Assembly: GCF_017348835.2 (NCBI RefSeq)
Contig: NZ_CP071375.1
Direction: 5' to 3' (one strand)
Length of the DNA: 64,000 nucleotides
From: Escherichia coli
GTDB taxonomy: Bacteria > Pseudomonadota > Gammaproteobacteria > Enterobacterales > Enterobacteriaceae
Part shown: positions 39,362 to 41,195 of the stretch, piece by piece
How the letters are laid out: each line of letters begins with the position of its first letter
Position numbering within the stretch: position 1 is the first letter of the stretch
The notes under the pieces: model-generated
What the model saw: the letters and a program-made list of their open reading frames with translations, nothing else
The model's database searches: none
Told to the model about the DNA's origin: nothing
Position numbers and translations under genes: made by a program

Positions 39362-39652
39362 ATGGCCAGTGGCGATCTTGTCCGTTATGTCATAACCGTC
39401 ATGTTGCATGAGGATACATTGACTGAAATTAACGAGTTGAATAATTACCTGACTCGCGATGGTTTTTTGCTCACCATGACGGATGATGAGGGAAATATCC
39501 ATGAGCTGGGGACTAACACTTTTGGACTTATCAGTACCCAAAGTGAAGAAGAAATTAGAGAACTGGTTTCGGGGCTTACCCAAAGTGCAACCGGCAAAGA
39601 TCCTGAAATCACCATCACGACCTGGGAGGAATGGAATAGCAACAGAAAATAA
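39362..39652 (+). CDS. ydiZ: Small uncharacterized protein
   Basis: 96-aa ORF, positional match to ydiZ. Confidence 0.75.
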   Translation: MASGDLVRYVITVMLHEDTLTEINELNNYLTRDGFLLTMTDDEGNIHELGTNTFGLISTQSEEEIRELVSGLTQSATGKDPEITITTWEEWNSNRK

Positions 39653-39757
39653 ATGGTTTTTGGGCAATAATCAGTCTGTGGTGTGCGTTAGCTCGTGTTT
39701 TTACACCGCATTCTTGCGCTAACCTTATGATCTGGCAGACAACATGGGAGAGACATC

Positions 39758-40618
39758 ATGTGGCAGGCAATCAGTCGTCTTTTGAGCGAGCAGTTAGGTG
39801 AAGGCGAAATCGAACTGCGTAATGAACTGCCTGGCGGAGAAGTCCATGCCGCATGGCATTTGCGCTATGCAGGACGTGACTTTTTCGTCAAATGTGATGA
39901 AAGGGAACTGCTTCCCGGTTTTACCGCCGAAGCCGACCAACTGGAGTTACTGTCGCGTAGTAAAACCGTCACCGTGCCTAAGGTTTGGGCAGTTGGCGCT
40001 GACCGTGACTACAGTTTTCTGGTGATGGATTATCTCCCACCTCGTCCGCTGGATGCGCATAGCGCATTTATTCTTGGTCAGCAAATTGCGCGTTTACATC
40101 AATGGAGTGACCAACCACAATTTGGCCTCGATTTTGATAACTCGCTCTCCACAACTCCACAGCCCAACACCTGGCAACGTCGCTGGTCAACGTTTTTTGC
40201 TGAACAACGGATTGGCTGGCAGTTGGAACTGGCAGCAGAGAAAGGGATCGCTTTCGGCAATATCGACGCCATCGTCGAGCATATTCAGCAGCGTCTGGCC
40301 TCGCATCAACCGCAGCCTTCTCTGTTGCACGGCGATTTATGGTCCGGCAACTGTGCGCTGGGTCCGGATGGCCCGTACATTTTCGACCCGGCCTGCTACT
40401 GGGGTGACCGAGAGTGCGACCTGGCGATGTTACCGCTGCATACTGAACAGCCGCCACAAATCTATGACGGCTATCAGTCAGTATCCCCGCTACCTGCCGA
40501 TTTCCTTGAACGTCAACCGGTTTACCAACTCTACACGCTGTTAAATCGTGCAAGGTTATTTGGCGGTCAGCATTTGGTTATTGCTCAGCAGTCATTGGAT
40601 AGATTATTAGCAGCATGA
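39758..40618 (+). CDS. yniA: Fructosamine/ketosamine-3-kinase family protein
   Basis: 286-aa ORF. Confidence 0.85.
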   Translation: MWQAISRLLSEQLGEGEIELRNELPGGEVHAAWHLRYAGRDFFVKCDERELLPGFTAEADQLELLSRSKTVTVPKVWAVGADRDYSFLVMDYLPPRPLDAHSAFILGQQIARLHQWSDQPQFGLDFDNSLSTTPQPNTWQRRWSTFFAEQRIGWQLELAAEKGIAFGNIDAIVEHIQQRLASHQPQPSLLHGDLWSGNCALGPDGPYIFDPACYWGDRECDLAMLPLHTEQPPQIYDGYQSVSPLPADFLERQPVYQLYTLLNRARLFGGQHLVIAQQSLDRLLAA

Positions 40619-40635
40619 TATGGGTTGAGGATAAT

Positions 40636-40657
40636 GGCCGCTCCGTGCGGCCTTTTG
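40636..40657 (+). terminator. yniA terminator
   Basis: GGCCGC-tccgt-GCGGCC hairpin followed by TTTTGATT. Confidence 0.6.
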
Positions 40658-40658
40658 A

Positions 40659-41195
40659 TTAAATAAACCCAAGCAGAGAAAAGAACACATAACCTGCAGC
40701 AATACAAATAACCGGCAGGATATACAGTGAGAAAAACTGCAGGAAAATAGTATGGTGCGGAACAACAATACGGGACTCAATTTGTTCACGCGTTAGCCCC
40801 TCTTCCCCTTTGGCTTTTTCCAGAATGAGTTGATCTTCAACACCTTCCCGCAAGAAGCGCGCCTGGCGACTCATCCGGGCACCGGAATCCTGCAACGCCA
40901 GTCCGACAAAAATCAGGATGAAAATCACCCAGAACATAACGTTCACGCCACCATTAAAATTGGGCGTCGGGGAGTTATACCAGAATAGATTCAAAAAAGG
41001 CGTATTCGCCTGCATCATATCGATCATGACATGAGTAAAGTCGAGCATGACCGCATTAATGCCTTCCTGGTTTTCCTGTCGGGTATTCATAAATTTCAGC
41101 AAAGAAATCAATGTAGAGATCAATGCAGGTATAAAAATCACCCAACCCAAAATCCTTTTCAAAACAGCAATGCGTCCAGCTTGTTGATACGTCAT
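40659..41195 (-). CDS. yniB: Inner-membrane protein
   Basis: 178-aa hydrophobic ORF. Confidence 0.85.
   Translation of the reverse strand: MTYQQAGRIAVLKRILGWVIFIPALISTLISLLKFMNTRQENQEGINAVMLDFTHVMIDMMQANTPFLNLFWYNSPTPNFNGGVNVMFWVIFILIFVGLALQDSGARMSRQARFLREGVEDQLILEKAKGEEGLTREQIESRIVVPHHTIFLQFFSLYILPVICIAAGYVFFSLLGFI

Follow-up and report, generated by a model that had tools for sequence, protein, structure and literature searches.

YniA of Escherichia coli: a fructosamine-kinase-family protein with an atypical substrate pocket, and its neighbours YdiZ and YniB

The genes ydiZ, yniA and yniB lie side by side in a stretch of 64,000 nucleotides of Escherichia coli DNA (assembly GCF_017348835.2, contig NZ_CP071375.1), called the window below, and the part of the window considered here, positions 39362-41195, runs exactly from the start codon of ydiZ to the start codon of yniB. 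Judged from alignments, YniA is a member of a subclade of the fructosamine kinase family in which residues of the substrate pocket are altered. With moderate confidence, YniA is interpreted as a stationary-phase, RpoS-linked kinase of a non-standard and probably anionic ketosamine-like substrate, for which ydiZ is a likely and yniB a possible accessory gene. YniA would thereby be a soluble ATP-dependent small-molecule kinase with the fructosamine-3-kinase fold that is present mainly in stationary phase under RpoS, and its substrate would be a damage product that resembles a ketosamine but is not one of the standard lysine-bound ribulosamines. This product would probably carry an anionic group near the amine, and alpha-glycated amino acids, phosphorylated ketosamines or glycated phosphatidylethanolamine might be candidates. 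YdiZ would probably be an accessory or co-expressed factor of yniA, and YniB is predicted to be a three-segment inner-membrane protein whose gene converges on yniA in most Enterobacterales.

Three observations lead to this view. A non-standard substrate is suggested by pocket changes relative to the characterised kinases (His288 to Arg, Phe252 to His, Gly152 to Ser and His241 to Asp, in the numbering of the human enzyme), ydiZ is regarded as the probable accessory because, wherever it was found, it shares the strand of yniA and precedes it, and the link between yniB and yniA is weaker since yniB has its most constant neighbour in hxpB, a phosphatase gene.

Identity and conservation of the three genes

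All three proteins gave full-length Pfam matches far over threshold (YdiZ to PF11080 with 165 bits, YniA to PF03881 with 392.5 bits, YniB to PF14002 with 251.8 bits), orthologues were found in 80 other enterobacterial species in a genome scan anchored on yniB, and Shine-Dalgarno sequences, read from the DNA, precede ydiZ, yniA and yniB alike. They are genuine genes and not chance open reading frames (ORFs). A stretch of 2080 bp with the same three annotated genes is present at 95% identity or more in 5423 of 5426 complete E. coli genomes. The genes ydiZ, yniA and yniB are vertically inherited core genes of E. coli that are already catalogued, and they are no novel type of system. PADLOC gave no defence-system match for any of the three E. 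coli proteins.

In K-12 MG1655 the genes are labelled 'putative endoribonuclease YdiZ' (b1724), 'putative kinase YniA' (b1725) and 'uncharacterized protein YniB' (b1726). An earlier reading of the sequence (the original prediction) had described the locus as a functional gap in an otherwise well-annotated region, in which yniA is flanked by the 96-aa ydiZ and by the convergent membrane gene yniB. The ORF list agrees with this arrangement and the reference labels agree with the gap, which is a known and genuine one.

YniA and its substrate pocket

The PF03881 profile covers residues 1-285 of the 286 residues of YniA, at a cut-off of 22.4 bits, and searches of the PDB returned the relatives 3jr1, 6oid, 3f7w and 9cx8 with E-values from 4e-71 to 4e-26. 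The assignment of YniA to the fructosamine-3-kinase family in the original prediction is therefore correct; its further statement that this family has no settled substrate in bacteria was too broad. With human FN3K (9cx8/9cxm), the Arabidopsis ribulosamine 3-kinase (6oid) and the Thermobifida fusca protein (3f7w), YniA has in common the full-length match, Lys45, the His-Gly-Asp motif, Asn198 and the Asp-Pro-Ala motif. Conservation was assessed in 67 enterobacterial sequences, namely E. coli YniA and 66 orthologues, and the catalytic set Lys45, His191-Gly-Asp193, Asn198 and Asp210 is invariant in all of them.

In the complex of human FN3K with DMF, nine residues contact the substrate (Ile25, Gly152, Asp217, Trp219, Phe252, Asn287, His288, His291 and Phe292), of which only Ile25, Asp217 and Trp219 were found to be essential (2025 preprint, bioRxiv 10.1101/2025.07.30.667714). 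YniA residues were mapped onto these positions by a HMMER alignment to 9cx8 and by a MAFFT alignment with the human sequence, whose nine contact residues agree with the numbering of the preprint. At the three essential sites YniA has Val, Asp and Trp, the exchange of Ile for Val being conservative, and it also keeps the contacts Asn287 and Phe292. The other four contacts are changed, Gly152 to Ser, Phe252 to His, His288 to Arg and His291 to Leu, the last of these being shared with the Arabidopsis homologue, which likewise has Leu at this position. Further differences from the human enzyme are His241 to Asp, Phe244 to Cys and, in the P-loop, Cys24 to Glu. The exchanges at His288, Phe252, Gly152, His241 and Phe244 are fixed in the YniA clade. 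The clade-specific YniA residues Arg264, His228, Ser131, Asp217 and Glu28 are invariant in 67 of 67 enterobacterial sequences, and Arg264 is kept in more distant members of the subclade as well. Family membership, fold and residue conservation are observed here, and from them we infer kinase activity and the nature of the substrate. YniA looks functional, yet its pocket appears to be fixed and atypical.

The closest solved relative is 3jr1, a structural-genomics entry from Haemophilus somnus that aligns over residues 1-267 (E 4e-71). It belongs to the same subclade as YniA and shares the motif CYWGDRECD, but differs in having HGN and NPA where YniA has HGD and DPA, and Phe where YniA has Arg at the His288 position. 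The change from HGD to HGN occurs in at least two separate sequence groups of the YniA clade, with the other catalytic residues remaining conserved. It is seen in 13 Pasteurellaceae-like homologues from metagenomes (loci L100-L112) and in several homologues linked to yfe genes, namely those of loci L126, L144 and L150-L152, about 70% identical to E. coli YniA, and that of L091 (53%), whereas other yfe-linked loci retain HGD.

Expression data in the literature

Published expression data on yniA and ydiZ point to stationary phase. The gene yniA was reported to be RpoS-dependent in O157:H7 (PMC2907692), both yniA and ydiZ were up in growth transitions towards stationary phase (PMC2241611), and YniA abundance is listed as 133 parts per million (PMC9841429). 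The transcript of yniA is among the listed MazF-processed transcripts (PMC5001579). Acid treatment increased ydiZ alongside dps, osmB, msyB and yiaG (PMC2270276). An increase of ydiZ was also given in an RNA-seq table for rifampicin, but was not confirmed by quantitative reverse-transcription PCR (PMC13256715).

Gene neighbourhood

The genome scan anchored on yniB covered 80 enterobacterial species, and the YniB alignment used for it matched Enterobacteriaceae only. Next to yniB the scan found hxpB in 79 of the 80 loci, ydjM and tcyP in 77 each, and a convergent yniA in 67, while ydiZ was present at 54 of the yniB loci and pfkB adjoined ydiZ or yniA in 62. Wherever ydiZ was present in these genomes it stood with yniA (54/54).

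A second scan, anchored on the YniA subclade, yielded 80 metagenome loci; the contigs have no taxonomy, so that independent rearrangements could not be counted. Apart from 13 Pasteurellaceae-like loci, which are taken up below, yniB was convergent to yniA in 61 of the remaining 67, co-directional in one and absent in five, one of these on a contig that was too short. In 53 of these 67 loci, down to a YniA identity of 62%, the strand of yniA also carries a gene of the PF11080 family upstream of it. It directly precedes yniA in 48 of them, and in the other five, where membership of PF11080 was confirmed, it stands before an intervening yfeABCD. The order in the yfe-linked loci (L128, L144, L150-L152, L091 and L097) is a ydiZ-like gene, then yfeA, yfeB, yfeC and yfeD, then a yniA-like gene, and finally yniB, which alone is on the other strand. 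This suggests that yfeABCD was inserted into the ydiZ-yniA pair, or that it was lost in the E. coli lineage. A look-up anchored on ydiZ added one locus with the same layout, bringing to about 108 the loci (54 from genomes, 53 from metagenomes and this one) in which ydiZ was seen, each time together with yniA.

The layout of ydiZ and yniA in tandem with a convergent yniB appears to predate Enterobacteriaceae. A second layout, with yniB co-directional and upstream of yniA, was found in two loci (L092 and L117), and the pairing holds down to a YniA identity of 56-62%. An initial view that yniB is unrelated to yniA was softened by the pairing in other lineages and by this second orientation. All the same, each pairing among the three genes can be broken. 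The original prediction had called ydiZ and yniB partners of yniA; the synteny supports this moderately in the case of ydiZ and less strongly in that of yniB, and each of the genes also occurs without the others. Gene identity and synteny are matters of observation, and from them we infer a physical or functional coupling of YdiZ, YniA and YniB.

Weighing the interpretation

Several findings speak against an interpretation of YniA as a kinase of a non-standard substrate with accessory neighbours. As to the neighbours, the Citrobacter freundii complex and Intestinirhabdus keep pfkB-yniA and lack ydiZ. In 13 enterobacterial species, which include Trabulsiella, Pseudocitrobacter, Raoultella and Superficieibacter (loci L023, L034, L057 and ten more), yniB is joined to yciA-yciB-yciC and no yniA is nearby, which places a rearrangement breakpoint exactly at the convergent yniA/yniB junction. 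The 13 Pasteurellaceae-like metagenome loci have neither ydiZ nor yniB within 5 kb. A look-up of distant YniB proteins brought 11 further homologues of 32-52% identity, one of them a prophage copy. No kinase gene is nearby in six of these 11 contexts, in five of which yniB is flanked by hxpB and a DUF481 or GreB gene and in one by MarR and EamA genes, and none is found beside the copy inside the P2-like prophage. In two of the others, both yfe-linked, yniB converges on a kinase gene, in another (L092) it precedes the kinase gene in the co-directional arrangement, and one contig was too short to judge. In most of these distant contexts hxpB adjoins yniB as well. Synteny among fairly close relatives can, moreover, persist without a common function.

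As to the kinase itself, we know of no positive activity of YniA. In the 2007 work of Gemayel and colleagues the purified E. coli protein, alone of five bacterial homologues, is reported to have been inactive on all ketosamines tried. The presence of Asn in place of the catalytic Asp in two groups of the YniA clade questions phosphotransfer as the conserved function, and the idea of an anionic substrate hangs on one Arg of the pocket and is purely conjectural.

The strongest competing explanation, possible though rather unlikely in our judgement, is that ydiZ, yniA and yniB are functionally unrelated and that their common layout is merely an inherited gene order of Enterobacterales. The occurrence of each gene without the others would fit, as would the separation of ydiZ from yniA by yfeABCD, the breakpoint that falls, in 13 species, precisely at the yniA/yniB border, and the constancy of hxpB, ydjM and tcyP beside yniB, which is at least as high as that of yniA. 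The convergent orientation of yniB, which makes co-transcription with yniA impossible, points in the same direction. What an inherited order explains less well is that ydiZ was never found apart from yniA in about 108 loci, that yniB and yniA recur as a co-directional pair in a quite different context, and that the pairing persists to 56-62% identity of YniA.

It is unlikely that YniA is a standard protein-ribulosamine/erythrulosamine 3-kinase of deglycation repair, with a technical reason for the reported inactivity and with ydiZ and yniB as unrelated neighbours. The full-length PF03881 match, the complete catalytic motifs and the three conserved essential substrate residues agree with such an enzyme, stationary-phase expression fits a repair role, and the title of Gemayel 2007, as far as a title can tell, gives this activity to many bacterial homologues. 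On the other side stand the clade-wide invariant changes of the pocket (His288 to Arg, Phe252 to His, Gly152 to Ser, His241 to Asp) and the Asp to Asn variants within the same clade. The reportedly negative assay of YniA would count against it too.

Still less probable is a drift of the YniA clade to a non-catalytic, pseudokinase-like or chemically different role, such as the binding of a ligand or nucleotide, exerted via YdiZ and/or YniB. Asn at the position of the catalytic Asp, found in 3jr1 (together with NPA), in the 13 Pasteurellaceae-like loci and in L126, L144, L150-L152 and L091, could be understood in this way, and so could the conserved neighbourhood with two proteins that do not look enzymatic. 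The reported inactivity of E. coli YniA would fit as well. Against this, Asp193 and every other catalytic residue are kept in E. coli and in 66 of 66 orthologues, an invariance in enterobacterial YniA that speaks for catalysis being under selection in this lineage, and neither ydiZ nor yniB is found near the Asn-bearing homologues of the Pasteurellaceae-like group.

A more far-reaching reading would join the three proteins in one conserved Enterobacterales system, made up of the kinase-fold YniA, whose catalytic Asp would be dispensable in some lineages, a partner with the Cas2/GhoS fold and a membrane protein. Its target would not be the classical protein ketosamines but might be glycated phosphatidylethanolamine, say, or some other anionic amine adduct at the inner membrane. 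We regard this as improbable.

YdiZ and the antitoxin GhoS

YdiZ had appeared in the original prediction as an anonymous small protein, and is in fact a member of a family with the GhoS/Cas2 fold. A model by AlphaFold2 (AF2; predicted local distance difference test, pLDDT, 82.5) found its best Foldseek match in the PDB in GhoS (2llz), with a template modelling score of 0.81 and a root-mean-square deviation of 2.3 Å, and the next matches were Cas2 proteins, which are more distant fold relatives. GhoS (YjdK), the antitoxin of the GhoT/GhoS type V system, has the Pfam family PF11080 and the ferredoxin-like fold in common with YdiZ. In contrast, BLASTP of YdiZ against GhoS showed no similarity, and a sequence search of YdiZ against the PDB gave no match at E <= 1. 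Comparison of the two clades by hhalign gave an E-value of 2e-4 at 18% identity and aligned Asn27 of YdiZ to Arg28 of GhoS, the residue described as mattering most for the RNase activity of GhoS (PMC4010927). Asn27 is at least 90% conserved in YdiZ, and distant homologues have Asn, Thr or Ser at this position.

A hidden toxin beside ydiZ was considered and ruled out, as the ORFs of at least 20 aa at positions 39200-39800 include no GhoT-like one (PF10753) and no small hydrophobic one next to ydiZ. The true ghoS-ghoT pair of K-12 is located elsewhere (4352584-4353081), and the gene downstream of ydiZ is yniA and not a toxin in about 100 loci. In RefSeq genomes of E. coli, the NCBI pipeline nevertheless names ydiZ 'ghoS, type V toxin-antitoxin system endoribonuclease antitoxin GhoS'. 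In view of the lack of an adjacent GhoT toxin and of the Asn at the key position Arg28, this name is probably an over-annotation, apparently transferred from the family profile.

The two forms differ in their distribution. GhoS is represented by 47 protein clusters, all species-named ones of which are from Escherichia or Shigella, and YdiZ by 173, and further YdiZ homologues occur in metagenome loci whose YniA is 62-70% identical to that of E. coli, most of them being matched by both the YdiZ and the GhoS profile. From these cluster counts and from the wider reach of YdiZ in metagenomes, YdiZ would be the older and widespread form, and GhoS looks like a recent Escherichia offshoot of it. Among the searchable full texts that mention ydiZ, none tests the function of the protein.

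It is very improbable that YdiZ is a type V antitoxin-like endoribonuclease against a membrane toxin encoded elsewhere, for instance OrtT, an orphan GhoT-like toxin of E. coli that is neutralised neither by GhoS nor by anything in a genomic library screen (PMC4344625): the family, the GhoS-like fold, the 'putative endoribonuclease' label in K-12 and this want of an antitoxin for OrtT would suit it, but there is no GhoT/OrtT-family ORF beside ydiZ, no BLASTP similarity to GhoS and no Arg28, the constant partner of ydiZ is yniA instead of a toxin, and the library screen with OrtT yielded no antitoxin.

YdiZ also gave weak full-length matches to phage families, namely PHROG 8894 (E 1.6e-5) and the NCBIfam 'YmfI family phage protein' (E 0.003, far under the cut-off). 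They are a hint that the GhoS/YdiZ family has phage relatives.

YniB and the Yersinia protein YfeE

Hydropathy and charge of YniB indicate three hydrophobic segments (about 14-38, 84-104 and 150-176), a positive N-terminus that is predicted to be cytoplasmic, and a basic loop at 105-149. The AF2 model is all-helical (pLDDT 92). A fold search with it gave no PDB match better than E 0.8, and a sequence search against the PDB gave none at E <= 1. At 50% identity this small family has 145 representatives.

One YniB homologue (P0103) carries the UniRef name 'YfeABCD regulator YfeE'. According to Yersinia papers, YfeE is a transmembrane protein with no known function, encoded in an operon of its own beside yfeABCD (PMC8411934; PMC1832192), and the locus tag of Yersinia pestis YfeE (YPO2445) is three after that of yfeD (YPO2442) (PMC2631605). 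In the metagenome loci L091 and L097, yfeA-yfeB-yfeC-yfeD and the yniA homologue are followed by a gene of the YniB family whose product shares 47-49% identity with E. coli YniB, an order that is consistent with the spacing of the tags YPO2442 to YPO2445, the comparison being one of position. Yersinia yfeE is therefore probably an orthologue of yniB. In yfe-linked loci the YniB-family member holds the position of YfeE, the 'fifth gene' at the locus of the Mn/Fe ABC transporter yfeABCD, whereas E. coli yniB has neither yfeABCD alongside nor an upstream Fur box. The link between YfeE and the Yfe transporter may be positional only, because the constant neighbours of yniB across lineages are hxpB and yniA and not yfe. 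A Fur box was sought since the yfeE operon of Yersinia has been reported to be Fur-responsive (PMC1832192). Fur control of yniB was rejected, the best match to the Fur consensus in the yniB-hxpB region upstream of it (10 of 19 positions) being equal to the background of the window.

The YniB-family gene in the prophage (P0283, 32% identical) was found in two metagenome loci (L098, 6001-7529; L099, 234-1762) between the lysogeny genes and the tail genes gpD/gpU of the P2-like prophage. Located 152 bp downstream of it is the gene of a 276-aa TIR protein, for which PADLOC gave a match to PDC-S35, a single-gene defence candidate (E 7e-105), and a weak one to PycTIR. P0283 itself has no match in PADLOC, and together the two genes may be a two-gene defence unit.

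Features and transcription signals of the locus

The features of the locus and its surroundings are listed in Table 1. The T-run of the strong hairpin behind pfkB is on the minus strand, so that it has the form of a minus-strand terminator (antisense to ydiZ); no minus-strand gene is annotated upstream of it, and the hairpin may end pfkB transcripts too. In the 105-bp spacer between ydiZ and yniA, scanning revealed no convincing terminator and no simple sigma-70 promoter, and folding gave no significant RNA structure (z-score +0.73). The gene yniA begins with AUGUG (39758-39762); it figures in a list of E. coli genes that have this start context, and its start was predicted to be unambiguous (PMC9841429). 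The intrinsic terminator of yniA sits inside the 40-bp gap between the stop codons of the convergent yniA and yniB. An Rfam scan of positions 38000-42500 at E <= 1 found no RNA element.

Table 1. Position, strand and description of the features in and around the ydiZ-yniA-yniB locus (window coordinates)
Feature	Position	Strand	Description	Basis
pfkB (6-phosphofructokinase II)	38329..39261	+	upstream same-strand neighbour of ydiZ; context only	ORF list, annotation
hairpin 3' of pfkB stop	39269..39290	.	9-bp stem, G+C-rich	terminator scan, RNA fold
ydiZ	39362..39652	+	96 aa; GhoS family PF11080, ferredoxin-like/Cas2-like fold	ORF list, Pfam, AF2, Foldseek
ydiZ-yniA spacer	39653..39757	+	105 bp; yniA Shine-Dalgarno GGGAGAG	sequence, fold, terminator scan
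yniA	39758..40618	+	286 aa; fructosamine-kinase family PF03881	ORF list, Pfam, PDB relatives
intrinsic terminator of yniA	40636..40652	+	GGCCGC-loop-GCGGCC then T-run	terminator scan, fold
yniB	40659..41195	-	178 aa; YniB family PF14002, inner-membrane protein	ORF list, Pfam, hydropathy, AF2
divergent yniB/hxpB promoter region	41196..41341	.	no Fur box	sequence
hxpB (yniC), HAD-family hexitol/sugar-phosphate phosphatase	41342..42010	+	context only	annotation

At a distance from these genes, upstream of yniD/ydiY at about 34000-36500, the annotation of the best-matching strain, PE164, shows the type III effector gene espL1 in intact form, whereas K-12 has the pseudogene arpB at this place. Judged by this strain, the window would come from a strain other than K-12 that carries the intact form.

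Significance

Only modest stakes attach to this locus. YniA, an RpoS-dependent protein of fair abundance, comes from a family of repair enzymes, and its substrate, if found, would add one step to the damage-control metabolism of bacteria. The natural Asp to Asn variants of the clade bear on whether catalysis by YniA matters. If the three-part system were true, 'YfeE' of Yersinia would belong to it rather than to the Yfe metal transporter. For annotation, the RefSeq name 'type V antitoxin GhoS' on E. coli ydiZ is probably wrong: the older YdiZ family travels with yniA, and the GhoS antitoxin is apparently its recent Escherichia offshoot.

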